The position numbers were made by a program, and so were the translations under genes. A DNA stretch of 64,000 nt from an uncultured Bdellovibrionales bacterium (GTDB lineage Bacteria > Patescibacteriota > Minisyncoccia > Moranbacterales > UBA1568): NCBI GenBank assembly GCA_964436855.1, contig CAYTED010000005.1, positions 2,539 through 66,538 of the forward strand, written 5' to 3'. Below are positions 24,862 to 40,133 of this stretch, piece after piece. The notes below the pieces were generated by a model that saw only the letters and a program-made list of their open reading frames with translations, was not told where the DNA came from and ran no database searches. Numbering within the stretch: position 1 is the first letter of the stretch; each line of letters begins with the position of its first letter.

Positions 24862-25554
24862 ATGAACAGCACCGTTCACTTCAAGGCAAGTCAATCTCTT
24901 CGTGAATTTCAAGAAACAATCAAAATTATTTATGGCCTTCCTGATGATCGGATGTACTCTACCGAAGATATTTTGACACAACAACGCTTTGCCATGAGGA
25001 CACTCAAAGGCATTCGAAAGAACGATCCCGAAAAAATAACACTCAATCTCATGATAGCCCTCTCGTGGCTCATGACGCTATCCAACCGATTGCAAATCGA
25101 TACTACAAAAGAAGTATGGAAACGTTTTCCTGGAATCTGCTCCTATTGCGGGGAAAAACCGTGTGTCTGCAAAAAAGTAAAAGTTCTGCAACGGAAAAAA
25201 ATCGATACAAATATTTCCCGAGAGCCGGTCACGATTCAAAAATTTCAAGAAATGTTTGAGACAATCTACCCTTCTTCCAAGAGGACACTAGCCGATGCTG
25301 GAATCCACTTCGCTGAAGAAGTCGGAGAAGTGAGCGAAGCTATTCATAATTATCTCGGACAACACCTCGAAAAACAATTTAATGATATTGAGCTCGAAAT
25401 AGCTGACGAGATATCCTGCATTTTCGGAGTAGCCAATTCAGCTCATATAAATATTGCCGAGGAGCTTGCAGTCATGTTTGCTGATGGATGCCACATCTGT
25501 CATCATGCTCCATGTGAATGTAGCTTCAGTTTTGTCTCACAAATCAAGACATAG
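24862..25554 (+). CDS. tandem MazG-like (all-alpha NTP pyrophosphohydrolase-like) domain protein with two Cys-rich knuckles
   Basis: Second half carries the EExGE motif (HFAEEVGEVSEAI) and EIADEI. The first half is a similar helical unit. The Cys clusters are CSYCGEKPCVC and CHICHHAPCEC. Confidence 0.5.
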   Translation: MNSTVHFKASQSLREFQETIKIIYGLPDDRMYSTEDILTQQRFAMRTLKGIRKNDPEKITLNLMIALSWLMTLSNRLQIDTTKEVWKRFPGICSYCGEKPCVCKKVKVLQRKKIDTNISREPVTIQKFQEMFETIYPSSKRTLADAGIHFAEEVGEVSEAIHNYLGQHLEKQFNDIELEIADEISCIFGVANSAHINIAEELAVMFADGCHICHHAPCECSFSFVSQIKT

Positions 25555-28473: not shown

Positions 28474-28553
28474 TTGCTTTTTATACTAGCATAATTATCC
28501 CAAAAACATCAAGAAAAAAACAGCGACCTCTCCACTGTTTTTTCCTGTTTTTT

Positions 28554-30137
28554 TCAGAGATCGTTTCCCGAATACGAGAGATTGAAACTCTTGTTGATAA
28601 GCGGGAAATCCGGAAGCATATCGTTCGGGAAAACGTATGGGAATATCTGCCAGTTTAGAGACGAAGGATCCCGAACCTTCACGCGAGCGATATACCCCTC
28701 CCGGTCCGTTGCAACAAAGTATACGATATCTCCGCGCCACCCTTCGGCAATACCGATTGCCATTCCTTTCGCGCGAAGCGGTTTTTGTTCCACGCGCAGC
28801 ATACCGTCCGTTTCATACGGAAGCAGTGTCAACACTTGATTCAAAATCCGGAATGACTCTCGGATTTCGCGAATTTTAACAAGAAAGCGTGCATACACAT
28901 CGCCCGCTTCTTCGGTCGGAATACCGAACTGCACCGAACCGTATTCCGCATATGGAAAATCCGCTCGCGCGTCATTCGCTTCGCCAAGCGCCCGAATCGG
29001 CACTCCGGTCACTCCGTGGTCAAGAGCGATATTTTTCGCGAGCGCGCCTGTTCCTTTTAATCGATTGAGAAGCGAATCACTCTCCATGGACGCATCGTAC
29101 ACTTCCTCAAAATCATTTTCGATCCGTTCGAGATCATCGGCAAGCATATCGGCAAGCGCTTCCGGAATATCCGTCATCACCCCGCCCACGACAACCGCGC
29201 CACGGAAATATCGATTTCCGGAAATTCGCTCATTCCACTGCATGATTCGCTCACGAAGCCGCGCGCCATTTGAACCGCCGAAGGAAAATCCGGTATCGAG
29301 CATAATAAATCCGATGTCGTTGAAATGATTGGCGAGTCGTTCCATTTCCGCAAAGATCATCCGAAGAAATCCGGCGCGCTTGGAAATCGAAATGTCCGAA
29401 AGCGATTCGATCGCCTGCGCGTAAGAAAGCGCGTGCGCCACGGTACTATCTCCCGACACTCGCTCGGCAAGCGCGATTTTCTTTTCCATTGGAAGCGTTT
29501 CAAACAGTTTTTCCACACCCTTATGAACCCAGCCGAGCTGCGCCTCGAACTTTACCACTTCTTCACCGAGCAAGCTGAAACGAAAATGCCCCGGTTCGAT
29601 AATTCCCGCGTGCACCGGCCCGACCGGCACCACATACACCCCTTCCCCCTCCATTTTTCCAAATGCATACGATTCTTTTGACATTTCAGGGCGCGTCGTT
29701 CCATTGAAATCCTTTCGGAGCGGATACACTCCCTTCGGCCAATTTCCATGCAAATTTATTGGGCGAGAATCCGGATTCCCCTCCGGTTCCAATCCGAAAA
29801 ATGTCCGAATCTCTCGCTCGTATCCGCCCGCCTGATGCAGTGTCGCCACCAGCGATGGAAACTTCGGAACATTCGGATCAATGGTAAGATACGGGACAAG
29901 AAAAATATTTTCTTTCGGAACGCCGAAAACATAACACACGCGGAACATTCCCGTATCTTTTCGGTCATCCATCGCGCTCAACGTTTTTAAGGGAAGTCCG
30001 TGAATTTTCACCAGGTTTTCACACATCGAAACGATTTCCCGCGCATCAACACGAAATGGAATAACACCCCCAACTTCAACATCGGAGACATAACGCTCAA
30101 GACCGAATTGCTTCAATATTTCAAATGCTCGTTTCAT
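28554..30137 (-). CDS. fused NuoC-NuoD / HyfG-HycE-like large subunit lacking all [NiFe]-ligating cysteines
   Basis: NuoC-like N-domain (EREIRTFFGLEPEGNPD, PLRKDF), then a NuoD/NiFe large-subunit fold (GPVHAGIIEPGHFRF). The N-terminal RxCGxCxxxH motif is present as ERVSGDSTVAH. The C-terminal DPCxxCxxH motif is present as DPSSLNWQ. Confidence 0.8.
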   Translation of the reverse strand: MKRAFEILKQFGLERYVSDVEVGGVIPFRVDAREIVSMCENLVKIHGLPLKTLSAMDDRKDTGMFRVCYVFGVPKENIFLVPYLTIDPNVPKFPSLVATLHQAGGYEREIRTFFGLEPEGNPDSRPINLHGNWPKGVYPLRKDFNGTTRPEMSKESYAFGKMEGEGVYVVPVGPVHAGIIEPGHFRFSLLGEEVVKFEAQLGWVHKGVEKLFETLPMEKKIALAERVSGDSTVAHALSYAQAIESLSDISISKRAGFLRMIFAEMERLANHFNDIGFIMLDTGFSFGGSNGARLRERIMQWNERISGNRYFRGAVVVGGVMTDIPEALADMLADDLERIENDFEEVYDASMESDSLLNRLKGTGALAKNIALDHGVTGVPIRALGEANDARADFPYAEYGSVQFGIPTEEAGDVYARFLVKIREIRESFRILNQVLTLLPYETDGMLRVEQKPLRAKGMAIGIAEGWRGDIVYFVATDREGYIARVKVRDPSSLNWQIFPYVFPNDMLPDFPLINKSFNLSYSGNDL

Positions 30138-30147
30138 AGGAAAAATA

Positions 30148-31605
30148 CTAGTGTCTACTCGTTAGAATATCCGCTCCGCCGGAAAGAATATGCTCAAGCG
30201 GCGGAACAAGCCACCACGAGAAAATCACCGAAAAAAGAAACAAGAGAATAACCGGCCACACCGTCAAACGATTGCTTTCCCCTATGGTTACCCCTTCCGG
30301 AACCGGACCGAAAAGCATCCCCGTAACACTCCGGATAAATCCAAAAAAAAGAACGGCGAGGAAAAACAATGCGAATGACACAAGATACGGATGCTCGACA
30401 AATCCGCTCGAGAGAATACCGAACTTCGTGAAAAACATTCCGAATGGAGGCATACCGAGAAGCGCGAGCGAAGTGGCAAAAAAGACGACCCCGGTCGACG
30501 GAAGCGCCTGAAGAACACCGCGAATATTCTCGATCTTGGTCGAACCGTATTTCAAGAAAATATTTCCCGCCGAAAAAAAGAGGAGCGACTTCAGAATCGA
30601 ATGATAGAAAAGATGAAGCAAAGCCGGTAACACCGCCGCCCCGCCGAATCCAAAACCAAGCGCCGCGATTCCCATATGATCAACGCTCGAATACGCAAGC
30701 AAACGTTTGTAATTTTTCTGAACAAGAATGATAAGCGCGGAAAGTCCGAGAGAGAGAAAACCGAAAAAAAGAAGCGTCTGATTGACAAACTCGACTCCAT
30801 TCGCCGCTTCCATCACCTCACGAAATCGAAGGATCGCAAAAAAAGCCACATTCAAGAGCACCCCCGACAGAAGCGCCGATATCGGCGATGGAGCTTTGCT
30901 ATGACCATCCGGAAGCCACGTATGCATCGGCGCGAGCCCAACCTTTGTTCCAAAACCAACAAGCACAAAGACAAACGCGATTTTTGCGGCAAGCGGCGAC
31001 AGTCCATTTTTCGCAGCAAGTTCGAGGCCGCTCCAATTTGGAATCGACACGCCATTGTACGGGAGCGAAAGGAACAACATTGTCCCAAGAAGACCGAGAA
31101 GAAGTCCGAGCGAGTTCAACAAAAGATATTTCCATGCCGCTTCGGTCGCGGACTGCTTGTTGTAAAAACTGATCAGAAATACCGTCGAGAGCGTAGTCGC
31201 TTCGATCGCGATCCACAAAAGAATCGGGTAATCCGCAAGAACCGCAACCAGCATTGCGAACAAGAAAAGCTCAAAGAGCAGATAATATTGCCGGACCCGC
31301 GCAAGACCGATAATTCCTTTTTTTGTTTCCTCGCGAAGATACCCAACCGAATGAAACGCGGCAAAAAGTCCGATCCCCGAAACAATCAAAAGAAACCACG
31401 CGCCGAGCGGATCGAGACGGAAAAGATCTCCAAGGATAACCGTTTCTCCTCGCGAAACCGCCAATGTGGCCGATATCGACGCGAGAAACGACACTCCTTG
31501 CGCGCCAAGGGCGACGCATTCAACCAAAAAACGCGCCTCCTTCCGAAGGAAGAGAATCATCAAAGCGGCGAGAAATGGAGCAAAGAGAACAAAAAAGAGT
31601 GTCAT
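30148..31605 (-). CDS. NuoM/N-HyfF-like proton-pumping antiporter subunit
   Basis: 14-TM Proton_antipo_M fold with conserved Lys/Glu-containing helices; similar to hydrogenase-4 subunit F. Confidence 0.75.
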   Translation of the reverse strand: MTLFFVLFAPFLAALMILFLRKEARFLVECVALGAQGVSFLASISATLAVSRGETVILGDLFRLDPLGAWFLLIVSGIGLFAAFHSVGYLREETKKGIIGLARVRQYYLLFELFLFAMLVAVLADYPILLWIAIEATTLSTVFLISFYNKQSATEAAWKYLLLNSLGLLLGLLGTMLFLSLPYNGVSIPNWSGLELAAKNGLSPLAAKIAFVFVLVGFGTKVGLAPMHTWLPDGHSKAPSPISALLSGVLLNVAFFAILRFREVMEAANGVEFVNQTLLFFGFLSLGLSALIILVQKNYKRLLAYSSVDHMGIAALGFGFGGAAVLPALLHLFYHSILKSLLFFSAGNIFLKYGSTKIENIRGVLQALPSTGVVFFATSLALLGMPPFGMFFTKFGILSSGFVEHPYLVSFALFFLAVLFFGFIRSVTGMLFGPVPEGVTIGESNRLTVWPVILLFLFSVIFSWWLVPPLEHILSGGADILTSRH

Positions 31606-31616
31606 AATCGTTGCCG

Positions 31617-32276
31617 TTATTCTTCAATAAGTTTTTTCATATCGGCGGTCGAGAGCGATCCGAATTGTCGATAGATAATCGATACAAACGCCGTCGCCAC
31701 AAGAATCCACACGAAAAGATCGAACAAAATACCGATATCGAGACCAATCGAAGTTTTGACACCGGCAAGCGCCGACAGAAAAACAATACTGTTTTCAAGC
31801 GACAAAATGCCCACGATCTGCGTCAGCACACCGCGCCGATTGATAAGGAGAAAAATCGATACGAGCACCATCGCCAAATTTATGGAAAACATTCCAATCG
31901 TCTCCGGGACGCTCGTCCCCAATGGTACGATAATCTTCGAATGAGCCACCGCGACAATCAGAAGAATCACCCCGAGAGTAATCGGCGTATTCGCGTAATT
32001 CGTTCCGGACATCGCCCCGCTTCCAATACGACGAAAAAGACGGAAAAAGAATGCCGGGGCAAGTATACCCTTCACAAAAAATGAAAGAAGGGCGACCCAT
32101 AAAAACCCCTTCTCCGATTCAGACAAACCAAGTAAAAAAAGCAATCCTGAAAGAAGAATCGATTGCATCACGTAGAGGAAGACCAGACTCGCGTTTCGAT
32201 GCACGACGTTCATAAGCAGCACCGAAACAAAAGCAGCGATGTCGATGAGAAAAAGAATGCCGTACCAAGTTTCCAT
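31617..32276 (-). CDS. HyfE-like small membrane subunit
   Basis: 219 aa with 6-7 TM helices. Its size and position between the NuoH-like and HyfF-like genes match the hyf/hyc operon layout. Confidence 0.5.
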   Translation of the reverse strand: METWYGILFLIDIAAFVSVLLMNVVHRNASLVFLYVMQSILLSGLLFLLGLSESEKGFLWVALLSFFVKGILAPAFFFRLFRRIGSGAMSGTNYANTPITLGVILLIVAVAHSKIIVPLGTSVPETIGMFSINLAMVLVSIFLLINRRGVLTQIVGILSLENSIVFLSALAGVKTSIGLDIGILFDLFVWILVATAFVSIIYRQFGSLSTADMKKLIEE

Positions 32277-32288
32277 ATGATGGATTCC

Positions 32289-33236
32289 TTAAATCGTAAT
32301 AATAATAACGAGCGCGATCACCGCAAGTACAAACGAGGTAAAAAGGAGATCGGGTACTCGGAAAATACGGAATTTTGCGATTGTCGATTCAAGGAGCGCG
32401 ATCACCATAAGGAATCCGAATGATTTTACAAGAAAAAGAGCCACCGAAAAAACGATTTCTTTCAACTCAAATGTCAACGAAAGTCCCCATGGGAAGAATA
32501 TATTCGCTCCGAGCGCGATAAAGATGAGTAATTTATTCGCCGCCGCCCACTCCAAAAGAGCGAGACGCTTTCCGGAGTACTCGAGAATCATCGCTTCGTG
32601 AATCATTGTCAGTTCAAGGTGTGTTGCCGGATTATCGACCGGAAATCTGGCATTTTCGGCGAGAAGAGCGATAAAAAACGCAATAAATGCGACAAATATC
32701 GGGAGAAGATTCTGAAGAGGAAAACCGGAAAGCTCAACCGAAATCGCCGCGAGATTCGTCGTTCCGGCCGCGAACGATGGCACGAGAAGAGCAAAGAACA
32801 GGCCTCCTTCGGCGAGCGCCGCCACCATCATTTCCCGACTGGACCCAAATCCTCCAAACGCACTCGCGGCATCCATACCGGCAAGCGCAAGAAAAAAAGT
32901 TCCCAACAAGAGAAGGTACACAACGATCAGAAAATCTCCCGCCGGAGCATACGGCGTGATTGCCGAGAAAATCGGAATACTCGCACCGATACATACCGTT
33001 ACACCAAATACAATATATGGCGCGACACGAAAAATCCATGAAGCGCTCTCCGAAATCACCTCGTCTTTTCGGAAGAGTTTTCGTAAATCAAAGTACGGCT
33101 GCAACACGCTCGCTCCTTCACGATTCTGCATTTTCGCTTTTATCTTTCGGATAATGCCGATCGCAAGCGGCGACAATGCCGGAATGACAATAATCTGCAA
33201 GAGAAAAAAGAAAATGTTTTGAGACAAGGAAGTCAT
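32289..33236 (-). CDS. NuoH / HyfC-HycD-like membrane subunit
   Basis: 8-TM NADH-dehydrogenase subunit-1 fold (ELTMIHEAMILEYSG region). ATG at 33236 preceded by AAGGAAG; the ORF track uses GTG at 33251. Confidence 0.75.
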   Translation of the reverse strand: MTSLSQNIFFFLLQIIVIPALSPLAIGIIRKIKAKMQNREGASVLQPYFDLRKLFRKDEVISESASWIFRVAPYIVFGVTVCIGASIPIFSAITPYAPAGDFLIVVYLLLLGTFFLALAGMDAASAFGGFGSSREMMVAALAEGGLFFALLVPSFAAGTTNLAAISVELSGFPLQNLLPIFVAFIAFFIALLAENARFPVDNPATHLELTMIHEAMILEYSGKRLALLEWAAANKLLIFIALGANIFFPWGLSLTFELKEIVFSVALFLVKSFGFLMVIALLESTIAKFRIFRVPDLLFTSFVLAVIALVIIITI

Positions 33237-33254
33237 ATTTTTTCGATACACTAT

Positions 33255-35303
33255 TTATTGTCGTACCGCCCACAACAGCAGAAACAGGAGCGTGAGAAAA
33301 CTGTAAAAAAAATACGTATTGATATTTCCCGTTTGAATTCGTTTCGCTCGCCGCCCCATCCACTCAAGAAATTTTTCAAACGGCCGATAGAGATACCCGC
33401 GATACACATCGAAGAGTCCGGTTTCCAATGACTGCGACTGGATAAAATACCGCATATGCTCGTCATGATATTCCACATCAAGCTGTCTTGTTGGTCGGAG
33501 AAGTCCCCGAAAAATCGTCACGAGCGACCGAGAAAAGCCCGCCGCGGTAATTTCCATCGACGCGTCGATCGGCGCACCGCAATCCCATGTCTGAAAAACA
33601 GTTACTGTTCGTTTGCGCGTGAAAAAATACACTCCTCCGCACACCAGTATCATTGTTATAACAAATCCGGCCGCCACCCATTCAAGCGGAAGCACCGTAG
33701 AAAAAACCTCTCGATTCTCAATCAACTCCATAAACGCAAACTGAAGTGATTCTCCCGACCCTCCCGCGACACTCCCGACAACACCGAGAATACCAGCAAT
33801 CACCGTCGTCGAAAACACCCCAAGAAGAACGGTCAGCCCGGCAAGAATTCCCATTGAAAAAAGCATCGACCATGAAAGTTCTTTTGCTTCTCTTGCCTCG
33901 TCCGTTCTCGGCTTTGCGAGAAACGTTACTCCAAACGCTTTTACAAAGCACGCGGCGGCGAGCCCTCCCGAAAAAACAAGAACGCCGATAGCAAACAGAA
34001 ACACTCCTTTCACAAGAATACTCGGAGACGCGATACCGATAAAAAGCGACTGAAAAGTAAACCACTCGCTCGCAAATCCGGAAAGCGGCGGCAACGCGGA
34101 AATCGCCATCGATCCGATCAAGAAAAAGAATCCCGTCCACGGAAGCGCCTTCAGAAGTCCGCCGTACGATTCCATATTTCTTGTTCCCGTGGACGCGACA
34201 ACCGAACCCGCTCCAAGAAAAAGGAGCGATTTGAACATCGCGTGATTCATCGTATGGTAGAGCGCCGCAGCAAGTCCGAAAAACGCCAATTGCTCTTTTC
34301 CGTATCCGATCGCGACTACCGCGCTCCCCACACCGAGAAGAATGATTCCGATATTTTCCACGCTCGAATACGCGAGCATTTTTTTGATATCGGAATTGGA
34401 CAGCGCATACAAAATACCGAACAAGACCGTAAAGCCGGCAAGTACCAATATGAACAATCCCCATTCCATACGTGCCCCCGGAAAAAAATCAAAAAATATG
34501 CGAATAATCATCAGAATAGCCGTCTTGATCATGACTCCGGAAAGAATCGCCGAAACATGCGACGGTGCGGCCGGGTGTGCTTCCGGAAGCCAGATATGCA
34601 ACGGGATAATGCCGGCCTTTGTACCAAATCCGATCAGCGCGAAAAAATATATCATATTCAACGCGACATCGGAAACCGTTCCATATGACGCCCTCCATAT
34701 ATCAAAATCGAAACTTCCGGTCGCCGAGAACGCGACAAAAAACGACAAGATGACAAAAACAGTCCCGAAGTGCGTCATTAAAAGATACTGAAATCCAGCA
34801 AAGACACCGTCTTTATTCGATCGGTCGGCGATAATAAGAAAATATGAAACGATCGACATCAACTCCCACACCAGTAAAAAGAAAATGCCATTGTTCGCCA
34901 TTGACACAAGAAAAAGCGACGCGATAAATATCGGATACGAGAAACCGAACAATTCCGTCCGAAAATGATCCGCCGTTTTTCGAAAATACCCGAATCCGTA
35001 GAGCGAAGCAACGGTGGTTACTCCGGACAATATCAGAAGGAAAAACGCCGACAGACCATCGATTCGAAACGCGAAATCAAAATAGGCAAGCCGCCCCGGA
35101 AGAAAAAAGGAAATTCCTTCTCCCCGGAAGAGAATATTCGACGAAAACACCGCCATCCAAAGAGAGCCGATGAAGCTGAATCCGTGCGAGAGTTCAATCG
35201 CCACTGCTTTGGAAAATCGTCCGCCGAGAAACGAAAGAAATCCCGCGGTGACAAGAAGCCCGAGAATCGAAAACAGTTCCGTGATTGTTGCGGTATGCTC
35301 CAT
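33255..35303 (-). CDS. NuoL / HyfB-like antiporter subunit
   Basis: HIWLPEAHPAAPSHVSAILSG motif (the WLPDAH...PVSAL block of complex-I antiporter subunits). 682 aa. Confidence 0.8.
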   Translation of the reverse strand: MEHTATITELFSILGLLVTAGFLSFLGGRFSKAVAIELSHGFSFIGSLWMAVFSSNILFRGEGISFFLPGRLAYFDFAFRIDGLSAFFLLILSGVTTVASLYGFGYFRKTADHFRTELFGFSYPIFIASLFLVSMANNGIFFLLVWELMSIVSYFLIIADRSNKDGVFAGFQYLLMTHFGTVFVILSFFVAFSATGSFDFDIWRASYGTVSDVALNMIYFFALIGFGTKAGIIPLHIWLPEAHPAAPSHVSAILSGVMIKTAILMIIRIFFDFFPGARMEWGLFILVLAGFTVLFGILYALSNSDIKKMLAYSSVENIGIILLGVGSAVVAIGYGKEQLAFFGLAAALYHTMNHAMFKSLLFLGAGSVVASTGTRNMESYGGLLKALPWTGFFFLIGSMAISALPPLSGFASEWFTFQSLFIGIASPSILVKGVFLFAIGVLVFSGGLAAACFVKAFGVTFLAKPRTDEAREAKELSWSMLFSMGILAGLTVLLGVFSTTVIAGILGVVGSVAGGSGESLQFAFMELIENREVFSTVLPLEWVAAGFVITMILVCGGVYFFTRKRTVTVFQTWDCGAPIDASMEITAAGFSRSLVTIFRGLLRPTRQLDVEYHDEHMRYFIQSQSLETGLFDVYRGYLYRPFEKFLEWMGRRAKRIQTGNINTYFFYSFLTLLFLLLWAVRQ

Positions 35304-35311
35304 ATTCTTGA

Positions 35312-35974
35312 TTATTGCGTCTCTTTTTTCTCCTCTCTTGTTTTCTTTCGATCTATTTTATCTCCCTCTTCAAAGAGAGAAAAAAGCGAGGCAATCACTT
35401 GTTTTGGCGATGGCGGGTCCCCGGGAATACAAAAATCAACCGGGATAACATCCGATACCGAGTCGTATATCGCGTATGATCCGCGAAAAATCCCCCCATT
35501 GATCGCTCCATCTCCGACCGCCACCACAATTTTTGGTGTTGGCATCGCTTCGTATGTCTTTCGGAGCGCTTCTCCCATATTGCGCGAAACTGGTCCGGTT
35601 ACCATAAGCATATCCGCGTGTCGTGGCGAAGCGACAAATTTGATTCCAAATCGCTCCACATCGTAATAACAATTGGAAAGCGCGGTCAATTCCTGCTCTT
35701 CGGCGTTCGACGAACCGGCCGCCACTTCCCGAATGGCGAGTGATCCATTAAAAAGTTCCGATATTTTCCCTTTGAGTCTCTCGCCAATGACCTCAACCTC
35801 ATCAGAAAGAAGCTCTCCTAGAGGAAGGATTGTTTTCGGGGTCGTCGCCATTTTTCGTAAGATGCCGTACATAGAAAATACAGAAAAACAGAGAATTCCC
35901 TCCATTCCCTGCATTACTTCAAAAATTGTCGAGGAAATACTGAAATATCCTACTCTTTCGGGAAAATTTGTCAA
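35312..35974 (-). CDS. NuoB / HycG-like small subunit with every [4Fe-4S] N2-cluster cysteine substituted
   Basis: Aligns to NuoB blocks. SCCYVEM appears as SSNAEEQ. SPRQADLM appears as SPRHADML. GACANSGG appears as GDGAINGG. PVDVYIPGCPP appears as PVDFCIPGDPP. Start uncertain (track TTG at 35974; ATGs at 35914 and 35851). Confidence 0.8.
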   Translation of the reverse strand: MTNFPERVGYFSISSTIFEVMQGMEGILCFSVFSMYGILRKMATTPKTILPLGELLSDEVEVIGERLKGKISELFNGSLAIREVAAGSSNAEEQELTALSNCYYDVERFGIKFVASPRHADMLMVTGPVSRNMGEALRKTYEAMPTPKIVVAVGDGAINGGIFRGSYAIYDSVSDVIPVDFCIPGDPPSPKQVIASLFSLFEEGDKIDRKKTREEKKETQ

Positions 35975-36603
35975 TTTTCAGACCGATCGGTTACGAAAAC
36001 GTTTCTTTCTTTTCGACGTTCAACCACATATCGATGCACCACAGGAAGAAATGAAATAAAGACGATACCGAGAATAATCGGGAGAAGGTATCTGTCGACG
36101 TCAATCACACTCCCAAGGAAATACCCCGCAAGAATAAGACCGAAAACCCACAAAAATCCTCCCAAAAGACTGAATAAAAGAAACGGTTTTCGATTCATTT
36201 TCGCCACACCGGCAATAATTGGCGCAAAGGTCCGAATAATTGGCATAAACCGTGCAAGAAGAATCGTTTTCCCGCCGTTTTCTTCGTAAAACATCCGCGC
36301 ACTTTCCGCGTGTTTTTTCTTGAAAAAAAATGAATCTTCTCGGGCAAACAGTCTCTCACCGACACGATGGCCAAATTCGTATCCGGCAATATTTCCGAAA
36401 ATCGCGGACAAAAACACCGCGATCAACAATATTGGAAGCGAAAAAAGATCCTGTGACGCAAGAAAGCCCGCAACAAACAAAAGACTATCTCCCGGCAGAA
36501 AAAATCCCAAAAAAAGTCCCGTCTCCGCAAACACAATAAAGCAAACCCCGACAAGCCCAATTGTCGTAATAAAATGTGGAAGACTGATACCAAAAAATTC
36601 CAT
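35971..36603 (-). CDS. DedA/VTT-domain membrane protein (second paralog), 4-nt overlap with the NuoB-like gene
   Basis: FAETGLFLGFFLPGDSLLF and LARFMPIIRTFAPIIAGVAKMN VTT motifs. Confidence 0.75.
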   Translation of the reverse strand: MEFFGISLPHFITTIGLVGVCFIVFAETGLFLGFFLPGDSLLFVAGFLASQDLFSLPILLIAVFLSAIFGNIAGYEFGHRVGERLFAREDSFFFKKKHAESARMFYEENGGKTILLARFMPIIRTFAPIIAGVAKMNRKPFLLFSLLGGFLWVFGLILAGYFLGSVIDVDRYLLPIILGIVFISFLPVVHRYVVERRKERNVFVTDRSEN

Positions 36604-36668: not shown

Positions 36669-38750
36669 CTAATACCTCGATTCCCTATAGAGAAGATTGG
36701 CGATTTTTTGCGGGATCATTCCTTTTCGAACGAGCTCCGAAACACCATCTTCAAACGCTTTCTCCATGCTCCGCTCACCGAATGATGCATCTATTTTCTC
36801 AAGCTCCTCCGCATGTGTCGAAAAAATAACTTCCGCGCGTTTTTTTGAATGCGCGAAAAAATCCCGATAGAGAGAAAGAATGCGATCGACGGTACCAATA
36901 TACTCTTCGGACTCCAGTCGGGATCGTTCTTTCAGTCGGGAAAGTTCTTTGGTGGTTTTCTGCGCCATAACCTGTTGCGCCCGATAATACGCGTATTGTT
37001 CCGACAGCGTTTCCGTATCGCTCAACTCTTGTCCCAGCAGTTTTTTTCCGATATGAACAATATATTCGAACCAGTCCGGATCATACGCATGCTCATTTTC
37101 CGGAACTTGCGATTCGCCCCGCTCCACGCGATCCGATTGTATTTCCAATTTTGATTCGAGACGACGAAATACATGGTCCGGAATTTCCCGATACATAAAC
37201 AAGAGTTTCAGAACATACCTCTCGGTTCCAATCGCATAGAGACGGATCGCGCGCTCGAACGCAAGCGCATCATTCGAGAGAACAATGCCGCACTCCTCGC
37301 ATTCTCGATTGAAATTCGATCGATATTTTTCCTTGAGCGTATCATACACGGAATTTCGCAAATATCCCTTCTCAAAAAATCCCTCAAGCTTGGAAAGCGC
37401 ATGCGAAAATGCATACGCCCGACTCTGTCGATACTCCGCATTTTCCACGGAAGAAAGCGTGTCCAATCGGTATTTTCGGATCAGTCGCCCGATTGTCGTC
37501 GCTTTCACGAAAAGGGTAAAATAAATACATCCGATCGTCAGCGTCATCAGAAATTCCCTCACAGAAAAATCATAGGTCCACCCCGGAACAGAAAGATCGT
37601 TTGGAACAAGAAGAACCATCGTAACCGCAAGCGCGCCTCGCAAGCTTCCCCACGACAAAAGATGCTGCCAGAGAATGGGAATATGATCTTCCCACTTGAA
37701 TCGATTGAGAACCATCACTACCGGATAAATCGAGAATGCTCTCGCTATCATCACTACCACAACCGTAATCAAAATAGGAACGGCAAACGCCCGAAAATCA
37801 ATCGGGAGCCCCGCAAACAAAAGTCCCATAGAAATAAAAACAAGCGAGTTCGCAAGAAACGCGAAATATCCCCAATACCGTTCAAGAAACGATTCTACCC
37901 GGGGAGAAATCTTTGAGCGCCCATAATTTCCAATCACCATCGACGCCATCACGGTCGCAACAATAGACGAGAGATGGATGGTATGCCCGCCGAAAGAAAA
38001 AAGATGAGCAAGTGCTTCTGAAAGAATAAAGGTGAGATGCGACACCAGCATGGTAATCGTTACCTCGGCGTGCTCGTCCTCTTCAACCCTTTCGAGGATC
38101 TTCGCAAACAAAAATCCCATCAAAAGACCAAAAAGCACTCCGCCGGCCACCATGATCGAGAATGAAATTATGCCGGCAAAAATTGTCTCGGCTCCATGAA
38201 ACCCGTTTGTTGCCACGCCCAGCACAACAAAAAAAAGCGCGAGCGATGTTCCATCATTAAAAAGACTCTCCCCTTCGAACAGAAACGAGAGGCGTCTTGG
38301 CACGCCATATTCTTTAAACAGTGCGAGTACCGCAACCGGATCCGTCGCCGAAATCAACGCGCCAAAAAGAAACAAAACGACCATCGGCACATCCAACCCA
38401 AATGAAGAAAGCGCGTACCACAGCACTATTCCGATAAAACCAGCAGAAAGCAACAAACTCAACACCGACAACAATGAAACGGCGCGGATATTTCGCTGCA
38501 GTTCCCGAATTTTCATATTGTATGCGGACTCGAAGATAAGAATCGGGAGAAAAATATAAAACAAGAGTTCCGGCGTCAGCGTAAATTCACGCAAAAACGA
38601 AAACGGACCGATATGCGAAAGCGGCACAAGAAGCGAACCCACCAACACAAGAAGCACCGTATACGGCGCCTTGATTTTCCGTGCGAGGTAGAATGTCCCC
38701 ACGGAAGTAAGGAGGAGAATAAAAAGAGAAAGTGTGTATTCAAGAGACAT
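36669..38750 (-). CDS. CPA1-family Na+/H+ antiporter (NhaP-type) with a ~300-aa cytoplasmic C-terminal domain
   Basis: ATDPVAV and GESLFNDG transport motifs, 12-13 TM helices, and a long charged helical tail. Start at ATG 38750; the track begins at an upstream GTG. Confidence 0.8.
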   Translation of the reverse strand: MSLEYTLSLFILLLTSVGTFYLARKIKAPYTVLLVLVGSLLVPLSHIGPFSFLREFTLTPELLFYIFLPILIFESAYNMKIRELQRNIRAVSLLSVLSLLLSAGFIGIVLWYALSSFGLDVPMVVLFLFGALISATDPVAVLALFKEYGVPRRLSFLFEGESLFNDGTSLALFFVVLGVATNGFHGAETIFAGIISFSIMVAGGVLFGLLMGFLFAKILERVEEDEHAEVTITMLVSHLTFILSEALAHLFSFGGHTIHLSSIVATVMASMVIGNYGRSKISPRVESFLERYWGYFAFLANSLVFISMGLLFAGLPIDFRAFAVPILITVVVVMIARAFSIYPVVMVLNRFKWEDHIPILWQHLLSWGSLRGALAVTMVLLVPNDLSVPGWTYDFSVREFLMTLTIGCIYFTLFVKATTIGRLIRKYRLDTLSSVENAEYRQSRAYAFSHALSKLEGFFEKGYLRNSVYDTLKEKYRSNFNRECEECGIVLSNDALAFERAIRLYAIGTERYVLKLLFMYREIPDHVFRRLESKLEIQSDRVERGESQVPENEHAYDPDWFEYIVHIGKKLLGQELSDTETLSEQYAYYRAQQVMAQKTTKELSRLKERSRLESEEYIGTVDRILSLYRDFFAHSKKRAEVIFSTHAEELEKIDASFGERSMEKAFEDGVSELVRKGMIPQKIANLLYRESRY

Positions 38751-38885
38751 ATAAAAAACCGAGATACGCGATAAAAAAGATTTTGAAAACGGACTCAAAA
38801 AAAACGCGGACGAGGCCACTCGACCGCACCGGCACAGAGATGTATGACAACCATTCCGTTATACTCCTTCTCAAAATTCTCGTCA

Positions 38886-38939: not shown

Positions 38940-39347
38940 TTACTTAAGAGTGACGGTCGCACCGGCTTCCTCAAGCTTCTTCTTTATCGCTTCAGCATCG
39001 GCCTTCGCGACTTTTTCCTTCACGACTTTCGGCGCGGCATCCACAATATCCTTCGCTTCCTTGAGCCCAAGTCCGGTTACTTCACGAACGGCCTTAATCA
39101 CGTTAATTTTTTGGTCGCCCGTTGCCGTCAATTCGACATCGAAGTCCGACTTTTCCTCGGCTGCTTCCGCAACCGCTCCGGCTGCCGGCATCGCCCCCAT
39201 CATCATCGGAGCCGCTGCCGAAACACCAAATTTCTCTTCGAGAACCTTCACGAGCTCGGAGAGATCAAGCACGCTCATCTTTTCGATTTCCTCGACAAGT
39301 TTCGCAAATTTCTCCGGCACCACTACTTCCTTCTTTTCTTCGGTCAT
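38940..39347 (-). CDS. rplL: 50S ribosomal protein L7/L12
   Basis: Ala/Gly-rich hinge, C-terminal domain [22 protein letters not shown]. Confidence 0.9.
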
Positions 39348-39385: not shown

Positions 39386-39450
39386 ACATAGAACATGGAA
39401 CAGAAAACAAAATACTCTTTGTTCTTTGCTCCATGTTCTCTGCTCTATGA
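39386..39450 (-). other. conserved-looking RNA hairpin in the rplJ-rplL intergenic region
   Basis: agaacatgga at 39390-39399 pairs perfectly with tccatgttct at 39431-39440. The flanking imperfect pairing extends the stem to about 20 bp. Confidence 0.3.
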
Positions 39451-39453
39451 AAA

Positions 39454-39975
39454 TTACTTCTTGCTTTCCGCCACCGCATTGAGCACCCGAACAAAACCGC
39501 CATAGGTCCCCGAAAGCGTCCGAACAAAACCGGCAACCGAAGCCTGAAGCGTGCCCGCAAGCGTCGCACGAAGTTCATCCCGACTTGGAAGTTTCGCGAG
39601 TGCCCTCACTTCTTCCACCGAAAGCGCCTTCATTTCAAGCGATCCGCCAACAATCGACAGTTTCGTATCTTTGTTTTCCTTCACGTGTTGCGCGATAACT
39701 TTCGCCGCCGCAACCTCATCGGAAGAAAACGCGACACCGACTTGTCCATCGAGCTTTCTCGCGTTCACGGGGATACCAACCTCCGAAAGCGCAACGTTCA
39801 GAATCGATTTTTTTAGGATTTGCCATCGCGACCCGGTTTCTCGAAGTGACTTCCGCACCCTTTCAATCTCCTTGACCGTTACTCCTTTGTAATCCGCAAA
39901 GACAAGCGCTTTTGAGGACTTAATTTTCTCCACCACTTCGTCTTTCAGTGCTACTTTTTCATTTTTTCGCATCAT
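39454..39975 (-). CDS. rplJ: 50S ribosomal protein L10
   Basis: L10 fold: ALVFADYKGVTVKEIERVRKSLRE..., with a C-terminal L12-binding helix. Start at the ATG-ATG pair (39975). Confidence 0.85.
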   Translation of the reverse strand: MMRKNEKVALKDEVVEKIKSSKALVFADYKGVTVKEIERVRKSLRETGSRWQILKKSILNVALSEVGIPVNARKLDGQVGVAFSSDEVAAAKVIAQHVKENKDTKLSIVGGSLEMKALSVEEVRALAKLPSRDELRATLAGTLQASVAGFVRTLSGTYGGFVRVLNAVAESKK

Positions 39976-40133
39976 AATCTTTTCTAAAAAAAATCGCGAA
40001 CCACCAGGGCCCGCAGAGCAAAGAAATCCGACCATTCATCTTTCGATGAAAAATTCTTTCCTCGTGAGGACTTCTCGCACCTTTCGATACGCGCCTCATT
40101 TCTACGGAACCTATTCACTTTTCCCACCCAAAT

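Follow-up and report, generated by a model that had tools for sequence, protein, structure and literature searches.

Complexes of the Ehr family (related to energy-converting hydrogenases), as published, combine a group-4-like large subunit that is free of cysteines in its L1 and L2 motifs with NuoB-, NuoH- and HyfE-like and two antiporter-like subunits; they lack the NiFe-binding cysteines, and their function is unknown (PMC6349859, PMC10284858, PMC3569383, PMC10432482, PMC6728331). In some of them NuoI is fused to NuoB (PMC6349859, supplement), an arrangement also seen among the loci surveyed here. The Mycobacterium tuberculosis locus Rv0082-Rv0087 ('hyc' or Ehr locus, regulated by Rv0081) has been classed as Ehr, with its function undetermined (PMC6728331). 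For the Candidate Phyla Radiation (CPR, Patescibacteria), Jaffe et al. (2020) describe a monophyletic Ehr subclade without the metal-binding cysteines of the large subunit, which 'likely cannot interact with H2' (PMC7304191). Here, we analyse a 64 kb stretch of contig CAYTED010000005.1 from an ultra-small CPR bacterium (the window, the part of this genome that was covered), which carries six open reading frames (ORFs) on its minus strand between positions 28554 and 35974, spaced by 8-18 nucleotides (nt). With subunit families assigned by Pfam and NCBIfam, the gene content, order and coordinates given by a first-pass annotation of this DNA were confirmed. The genes cover the published Ehr subunit set, which is also that of GSU0739-45 of Geobacter sulfurreducens and of ordinary Ehr (small, HyfB-, NuoH-, HyfE-, HyfF-like and large subunit), and the operon is predicted to encode a six-subunit Ehr-family complex of a CPR-specific clade. 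Judged from its protein sequences, this complex has neither a canonical NiFe site nor a canonical Fe-S site.

The best structure matches for five of the six subunits are found in the Escherichia coli formate hydrogenlyase (FHL; Hyc, 7z0s), Hyf, the Pyrococcus membrane-bound hydrogenase (MBH, 6cfw) and the membrane-bound sulfane reductase (MBS, 6u8y), all of which have the same coupling architecture between peripheral and membrane arms. FHL and MBH hold a NiFe site at the interface of the large and small subunits, MBS reduces sulfur at the proximal cluster, and every model known to us for complex I, MBH, MBS or FHL has a redox reaction at the NuoB/NuoD interface as the first step of coupling. 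In the window complex the NiFe site is absent, and the proximal cluster, the HycF/MbhN ferredoxin subunit and the electron-input modules of FHL, MBH and MBS are missing as well. Neither the hallmarks of a group 4 [NiFe]-hydrogenase (four NiFe cysteines, a 2x[4Fe-4S] subunit and a proximal cluster) nor those of complex I (cluster N2, the N6a/b clusters of NuoI, the NuoEFG input module and equivalents of His38 and Tyr87 of Nqo4) were found. The same holds for the small subunit binding a proximal [4Fe-4S] cluster through four cysteines, a feature that is typical of Ehr and may or may not belong to the published definition.

Former metal sites of the peripheral arm

The NuoB/HycG/MbhJ-like small subunit (Oxidored_q6 / NuoB; 35312-35872, minus strand as all six genes) comprises 186 residues from M35 of an ORF that is open to 35974 (220 residues). 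In HMMER alignments to solved structures it matches MbhJ (E=2e-25) and HycG (E=2e-23). Over the ligand motifs the alignment to MbhJ is ungapped, with SGSCNGCDIE opposite AGSSNAEEQE, GACPTGG opposite GDGAINGG and PGCPP opposite PGDPP in the window protein, and the four [4Fe-4S] ligand positions are now held by S55, E58, G122 (with D121 before it) and D152 in the 186-residue numbering. As these motif alignments show serine, glutamate, glycine and aspartate instead, all four cluster cysteines are gone, a loss that had been read from the translation alone and that the alignment to HycG bears out as well. The fold itself is predicted to survive without the cluster: an AlphaFold2 model with a mean predicted local distance difference test score of 78.5 (85-95 in the core) superposes best on MbhJ (6cfw_J), with a TM-score of 0.87 and a root mean square deviation of 2.2 Å over 137 columns.

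Across the relatives, the substitutes at the cluster positions are biased to aspartate and glutamate, with patterns such as TCDDD, SEDGD and DCDDD and an aspartate nearly always in the fourth position. They differ by sub-clade (S/T/D/N, C/E/A/V, G/D/E/A and D/N/S). A defined replacement metal site at these positions was considered and is unsupported, the residues being mostly acidic but variable between sub-clades.

The fused NuoC-NuoD/HycE-like large subunit (28554-30137, 527 residues; Complex1_30kDa and Complex1_49kDa) matches HycE (7z0s_E) with E=8e-66. RVCGICGFAH of HycE lies opposite RVSGDSTVAH, and its C-terminal DPCYSCTD lies opposite NLSYSGND at the extreme C-terminus, both ungapped; the four NiFe cysteine positions are now S228, S231, S521 and G524. 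The N-terminal motif had been recognised correctly as free of cysteines. For the C-terminal motif, the absence of cysteines was also correct, but the assigned site, 'DPSSLNWQ', lies ~30 residues upstream of the true one. It had to be considered that the cysteines of either subunit are conserved and merely offset by indels. This was ruled out, since no gap falls within the motifs when the proteins are aligned to MbhJ, HycG and HycE, and the same columns recur in relatives; none of the structure alignments revealed a ligand that is conserved but shifted.

In complex I, His38 and Tyr87 of Nqo4 are the ligands of the quinone head group. An ungapped alignment to Thermus Nqo4 (2fug_4) places I180 opposite H38 and G229 opposite Y87, and the complex I quinone ligands have no equivalent in the large subunit. 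The same large-subunit substitutions are present in 120 of the 120 closest large subunits. With eight metal-ligating cysteines replaced and the quinone ligands without equivalent, the earlier conclusion that the complex is not a conventional hydrogenase or NADH:quinone oxidoreductase is upheld.

The β1-β2 loop, which in complex I relays active-site events to the membrane arm, reads PVGPVHAGIIEPGHFRF in the large subunit and is invariant across CPR and Chloroflexota sequences. Both this loop and the former active-site motifs are alike in CPR-type Ehr and in Ehr that contain the proximal cluster. Only two weakly discriminating alignment columns separate large subunits with a cysteine-less small-subunit partner from those whose partner has the cysteines. 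The activity of the large subunit therefore seems to be independent of the neighbouring cluster, which would be dispensable for it. A search for large-subunit changes that might compensate for the loss of the cluster gave no support, as the two weak columns provide no account in terms of charge pairing.

No gene for an electron-transfer partner was detected nearby. A six-frame scan of the window gave no instance of the ferredoxin motif CxxCxxCxxxC, nor was one found in a credible ORF of 15 related loci. The window contains no NuoI-, NuoE-, NuoF- or NuoG-like ORF, no Hyp maturation protein was found among its 31 ORFs scanned with Pfam, and neither the window nor the CPR-type loci showed a flavin-binding, NAD(P)-binding or Fe-S domain. 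The window ORFs rich in CxxC are those for UvrA and topoisomerase I (TopA). A redox partner hidden in the flanks was rejected on these grounds, as the six-frame motif scan and the Pfam search of cysteine-rich ORFs led to UvrA, topoisomerase I and a 230-residue protein without CxxCxxCxxxC. Within the 64 kb, the first-pass annotation was right in stating that NuoI/HycF/EchF-, HyfA/HyfH- and NuoEFG-like genes are missing from the cluster and its flanks, and the scan beyond the operon ends for a co-encoded ferredoxin-type subunit was negative. Because the NiFe site, the proximal [4Fe-4S] cluster and a NuoI/ferredoxin domain are all absent, no canonical site for any redox cofactor can be recognised.

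The loss of every catalytic ligand would also be expected if a former hydrogenase or Ehr operon were decaying and no longer functional, or could reflect a sequencing or assembly artefact. An artefact is contradicted by two independent runs (SRR12229868 and SRR30303844) whose assemblies both yielded the large subunit with 100% identity, and by relatives that carry the same changes; the cluster cysteines are lost in every CPR-type small subunit examined, and we regard the substitutions as real. All six ORFs are intact. Compared with a syntenic relative (L104, small subunit 86% identical), the ratio of non-synonymous to synonymous substitution rates (dN/dS) is 0.058 for the small subunit, 0.087 for HyfB, 0.074 for the NuoH-like subunit and 0.12 for both HyfE and HyfF, values that are approximate because dS, at 1.2-1.7, is near saturation. 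The neighbouring ribosomal protein genes give comparable values, 0.02-0.08, in the same comparison. Purifying selection on the operon is unambiguous and strong. Ratios of 0.06-0.12 at dS >1, intact ORFs, invariant proton-channel residues, an identical protein in two runs and an architecture that recurs in dozens of loci, with thousands of homologues, refute an artefact, pseudogene or relic and leave this explanation hardly any probability.

Distribution and placement within the Ehr family

The closest named homologues belong to Candidatus Moranbacteria and Patescibacteria (55-64% identity). The gene order is the same in 15 genome loci, and the same six genes are present in ~60 loci. Many of the closest genome records (L002-L015) are titled 'uncultured Bdellovibrionales bacterium', yet they are syntenic with and 56-60% identical to Moranbacteria/Patescibacteria loci; these labels look wrong.

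A survey of 103 further loci from genomes and metagenomes placed the operon in a wider context. The signature R[IV]SGD..H plus NLSY[SA]GxD, which the window complex shares with ordinary Ehr, is common to ~90 Ehr loci, and this cysteine-free signature is carried by all but three of the recovered large subunits, including high-GC proteobacterial- and actinobacterial-like ones. Together with the subunit set and the tree described below, it corroborates the proposed membership of the Ehr class. The small subunits divide differently. All 53 Ehr loci outside the CPR retain the four cluster cysteines (CCDCC, CCACC); their GC content is mostly 0.5-0.72, and many have a NuoI-type 2x[4Fe-4S] domain fused to NuoB as an extension. 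The window complex has neither the cysteines nor the extension. All 23 CPR-type and Chloroflexota loci, i.e. the low-GC CPR type with the small subunit first and a Chloroflexota metagenome-assembled genome (L019), have lost the small-subunit cysteines, with patterns that include SEDGD, TCDDD, DCDDD and DADAD. Among the top 150 matches in 1.8 billion representative proteins, ~25 clusters are cysteine-less, and in a profile search this applied to 120 of the best 120 matches, with TCDDD as the commonest pattern.

The first-pass annotation had held that the complex goes beyond ordinary Ehr on two counts. The loss of the small-subunit cluster indeed separates the groups (23/23 versus 0/53), but the missing separate NuoI gene does not, as many cluster-containing Ehr operons also have none (e.g. 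L016, L039 and L046).

In a neighbour-joining tree of the large subunits, which is distance-based, crude and devoid of support values, the window protein is nested inside Ehr and away from HycE and from the relatives that keep the NiFe cysteines. The main CPR clade is monophyletic and stands next to the Chloroflexota locus and to a group of high-GC loci in which the small-subunit gene comes first. The M. tuberculosis locus Rv0082-Rv0087 likewise consists of six genes with the small subunit first, as in the window. The high-GC relatives with this order keep four cysteines (CCDCC), unlike the window complex, a difference that refers to these surveyed relatives. A second low-GC cysteine-less clade (L086, L090 and L096) is placed elsewhere in the tree, which suggests that the cluster was lost more than once, by this tree at least 2-3 times. 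The placement of the large subunit within Ehr, as far as the crude tree can give it, agrees with the CPR study (PMC7304191).

Two findings are apparently unreported: that the last redox centre has been lost throughout the clade, and that the operon is linked to the ATP synthase as described below. No report of a loss of the small-subunit cluster or of a fully cofactor-free complex was found in the searchable literature, outside which lie the founding papers (Coppi 2005 and Marreiros et al. 2013), which are said to have defined the Ehr family. At the level of the large subunit, the CPR Ehr clade of Jaffe et al. (2020) is the same thing, and since this clade and its missing NiFe cysteines are published, the novelty is narrower than initially implied; the accessible part of that paper does not mention the Fe-S loss in the small subunit, the absence of any redox site or an adjacency to ATP synthase, NhaP or DedA (PMC7304191).

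The survey also revealed some unusual relatives. Two Ehr-related operons (L020, 8310-10882, and L023, 8370-10558), each preceded by a gene for an ArsR-type helix-turn-helix protein, encode large subunits that keep the four NiFe cysteines, with the motifs ERICGVCALSHA...FELCYACCD and EHVCGMCSYAHS...FNLCYACVD, respectively. Their small subunits have lost most proximal-cluster cysteines (ECDED and CEDGD), an odd combination for a hydrogenase, and that of L020 is fused to a 2x[4Fe-4S] NuoI-like domain. Four high-GC NuoI-NuoB fusions (P0242, P0255, P0264 and P0265) lack the N2 cysteines in the NuoB part, and their ferredoxin part is half-degenerate, with a single CxxCxxC and, in three of the four, a lone 'CP'. 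Two contigs (L079:1-21467 and L092:1-11644) carry two complete or nearly complete Ehr operons in tandem, which points to duplication of the whole module.

Ion-translocation residues and proposed function

Two of the membrane subunits are antiporter-like (PF00361), and not three, as had been assumed. The HyfB/HycC-like subunit (NuoL/MrpA class; 33255-35303, 682 residues) is recognised by the HyfB model (hydrogenase-4 subunit B) with 626 bits and matches HycC (7z0s_C) with E=2e-63. It keeps the glutamate of transmembrane helix (TM) 5, E147, and the lysines of TM7, TM8 and TM12 (K229, K260 and K358). The HyfF-like subunit (NuoN/M, MrpD and MbhH class; 30148-31605, 485 residues; HyfF model; MbhH, E=1e-32) keeps the corresponding E135, K221 and K339 of TM5, TM7 and TM12, and an asparagine occupies its TM8 lysine position. 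The NuoH/HycD/HyfC-like subunit (32289-33236, 315 residues; NADHdh / NuoH; HycD 7z0s_D, E=2e-48), which joins the membrane arm to the peripheral arm, has acidic residues E140, E148, E199, D206, E213 and E219 at positions that match the E-channel of complex I. The HyfE-like small membrane subunit (31617-32276, 219 residues) is recognised only by the NCBIfam model 'hydrogenase 4 membrane subunit' with 56 bits, which is under the curated cut-off; it has no Pfam match and no match in the PDB even at E=10. Its relatives give a weak Oxidored_q2 (NuoK) match, and it may correspond to MrpC/NuoK. K69 and the membrane glutamate E161 of HyfE are invariant in 21 CPR-type sequences, as are the residues named for HyfB, HyfF (E135, K221, K339) and the NuoH-like subunit. 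The complex-I-type ion-translocation residues are, by this comparison, intact.

The Mrp antiporter (6z16, 7qru and 7d3u), to our knowledge the only branch of the superfamily that works without redox chemistry, resembles the membrane arm in that MrpA and MrpD are matched by HyfB and HyfF with the same lysine and glutamate residues. It has no peripheral arm and no NuoH-like subunit, whereas the window complex has NuoB-, NuoCD- and NuoH-like subunits; conversely, MrpB, E, F and G are absent from the six-gene operon. For the mechanism put forward below, Mrp is the nearest functional analogue, which does not imply family membership.

A complete F1Fo ATP synthase operon adjoins the cysteine-less Ehr operon on the same strand in six CPR-type loci. 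It lies upstream in L022 (929-9714), L031 (3-4297), L086 (131-4134) and L090 (1-4292), and downstream in L021 (17353-20540) and L032 (9173-14084). In the upstream loci the gaps between atpC and the small-subunit gene are below ~100-290 nt, with less than ~100 nt in L031, L086 and L090, and the Ehr and atp operons are probably co-transcribed in the adjacent loci. The adjacency was found in 6/23 cysteine-less and 0/53 cluster-containing Ehr loci (Fisher's exact p = 5e-4, which is an indication and not a probability because the loci are related). Other neighbours of the CPR operons were uninformative, and no extra gene is conserved in the operons.

As every known redox-metal site has been lost and the complex is nevertheless strongly conserved, it probably moves ions across the membrane without electron transfer. 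The roles suggested by the first-pass annotation, namely redox-independent ion translocation, sensing of ions or the docking of a partner, would each be compatible with the evidence. We propose that it acts as a redox-independent cation or proton translocator that follows an Mrp-like energetic logic and serves the proton-motive force (pmf) and ion homeostasis in fermentative cells, a reading to which, with its mechanism inferred, we assign a probability of roughly 45%. Like Mrp, the complex would be a secondary transporter that is powered by ion gradients or interconverts them. Its role would be in pmf and pH/Na+ homeostasis of fermentative cells without a respiratory chain, where it would be active together with the F1Fo ATPase and, in this genome, with NhaP as well, and the cofactor-free peripheral arm would cap the NuoH channel in a structural or gating capacity. 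The retained glutamate and lysine chains of the antiporter-like subunits, the acidic residues of the NuoH-like subunit, the HyfE glutamate and the β1-β2 loop are consistent with this proposal, as is the genomic linkage to membrane-energetics genes, with atp operons adjoining in six CPR-type loci and NhaP and DedA upstream in this genome.

Several points weigh against such a translocator. Nowhere in the literature is a function established for Ehr, and transport by an Ehr complex has yet to be measured. The Mrp subunits that are thought to carry Na+, i.e. MrpB, E, F and G, are those absent here. The c-subunits of the adjoining ATP synthases look H+-type when compared with reference motifs and thus give no sign of a Na+ cycle, and a Na+-coupled ATP synthase beside the operon was rejected as a candidate. 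The adjacency counts are not phylogenetically independent, the synteny with NhaP and DedA is loose, with NhaP swapped for another gene in the close relative L104, and a partner may be encoded outside the 64 kb covered. Finally, the coupling loop and the SGD / NLSYSG site are both invariant, which one would not predict for a simple cap and which suggests that something still takes place where the active site used to be.

Alternatively, the complex could still be a pump driven by chemistry. A soluble partner or a small-molecule substrate might act at the former NiFe pocket, which is conserved (RxSGD..H / NLSYSGxD) and adjoins the β1-β2 loop, or a cofactor or metal might bind the aspartate, glutamate and serine residues that replace the cysteines, and the resulting conformational cycle would generate pmf for the adjacent ATP synthase. 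The invariance of these motifs and of the loop in CPR-type and cluster-containing Ehr, the strong acidic bias at the cluster positions and the adjacency itself, which suits a pmf generator, speak for this possibility, but there is no electron path, given that neither the window nor the CPR-type loci encode an Fe-S, flavin- or NAD(P)-binding domain. The variation of the substitutes by sub-clade argues against a defined metal site, and an extra gene conserved in the operons, as might encode a partner, is missing. We also know of no precedent for a non-redox reaction that drives a member of the complex I superfamily. A metabolic link of the family is suggested by Ehr subunits of Geobacter that rise on formate (PMC7894505). 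On balance we consider a chemistry-driven pump unlikely, though it is the main rival to a redox-independent translocator.

The recurrent adjacency to, and probable co-transcription with, the atp operons could also be read in terms of regulation. The complex would then sense a gradient instead of transporting ions, with protonation of the membrane arm moving the peripheral arm and thereby modulating, for example, the ATP synthase, and coupling elements that are kept without catalytic cofactors would fit such a device. However, no subunit has a signalling or interaction domain, and two full antiporter-like subunits with intact lysine and glutamate chains would be costly in a ~1 Mb genome. Direct support for a sensor is absent, and we rate it as improbable.

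Whether the cycle is driven by a gradient or by non-redox chemistry, the complex could, rather tentatively, be the first member of the complex I/membrane-hydrogenase superfamily with both arms and no redox cofactor, an ion machine that would be core to the minimal bioenergetics of CPR and genetically coupled to the F1Fo ATPase. The same tentative claim implies that the function of Ehr overall, including Rv0082-87 of M. tuberculosis, would be independent of electron transfer through the small subunit. A conserved coupling apparatus without redox centres would amount to evolution's own experiment on the conformational and electrostatic machinery alone, and it could bridge Mrp antiporters and redox-driven pumps mechanistically. 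As far as we know, CPR/Patescibacteria lack a respiratory chain, and it is debated which way their ATP synthase operates. A complex with thousands of homologues that recurs beside the atp operon is a candidate for a missing piece of their membrane-potential management. For Ehr, whose function has been unknown since 2005, the proposed translocator offers a concrete hypothesis that extends to the hypoxia-regulated locus of M. tuberculosis.

Flanking genes and transcription signals

Directly upstream of the operon lies a gene for a membrane protein of the DedA/VTT family (35971-36603, minus strand), followed further upstream by one for a NhaP/CPA1-type Na+/H+ exchanger (36669-38819, minus strand). 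DedA/VTT precedes the operon in nine related loci, and the synteny is kept in loci of the Moranbacteria type; a link of DedA to the complex is uncertain. NhaP is upstream in some relatives only (L009, L014 and L017).

The best promoter-like site of the region, TTGACA-16-TAGGAT (35947-35974, minus strand; 10/12 consensus matches), overlaps the DedA stop codon and lies upstream of the small-subunit gene. It is a consensus match only, in a region where the count of such sites equals chance expectation. The TTG at 35974 had been taken as the start codon of the small subunit, which is probably wrong: as the promoter-like site spans 35974-35947, this TTG is probably part of it. Homologues of the small subunit begin at the position of M35 (35872), and an independent gene call in L017 takes M21 (35914). 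The start is probably one of these two, 60-100 nt downstream of the TTG. A search with Rfam at a permissive threshold gave no credible upstream candidate for a riboswitch or an ion-sensing RNA. An intrinsic-terminator-like hairpin (28512-28546, minus strand) with a 15-bp stem and a T run behind it marks where the operon ends, at 8 nt past the stop codon of the large subunit.

The 230-residue protein met in the search for cysteine-rich ORFs is encoded on the plus strand (24862-25554), has nine cysteines and no Pfam match, and is conserved, with a copy also beside the operon in L017 and L018. Its 'EEVGEVSEA' motif may resemble one of MazG-type pyrophosphohydrolases. The GC skew is negative in every 2-kb bin of the window (1-64000) and the cumulative skew falls monotonically, which places the whole window on a single replichore and leaves room for neither an origin nor a terminus within it. 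Between rplJ (39454-40035) and rplL (38940-39347) there is a palindromic element (39388-39441). It scores on both strands against the mir-379 model of Rfam with 27 bits (gathering threshold 56), a chance match as far as the name is concerned; the element is probably a hairpin or attenuator.

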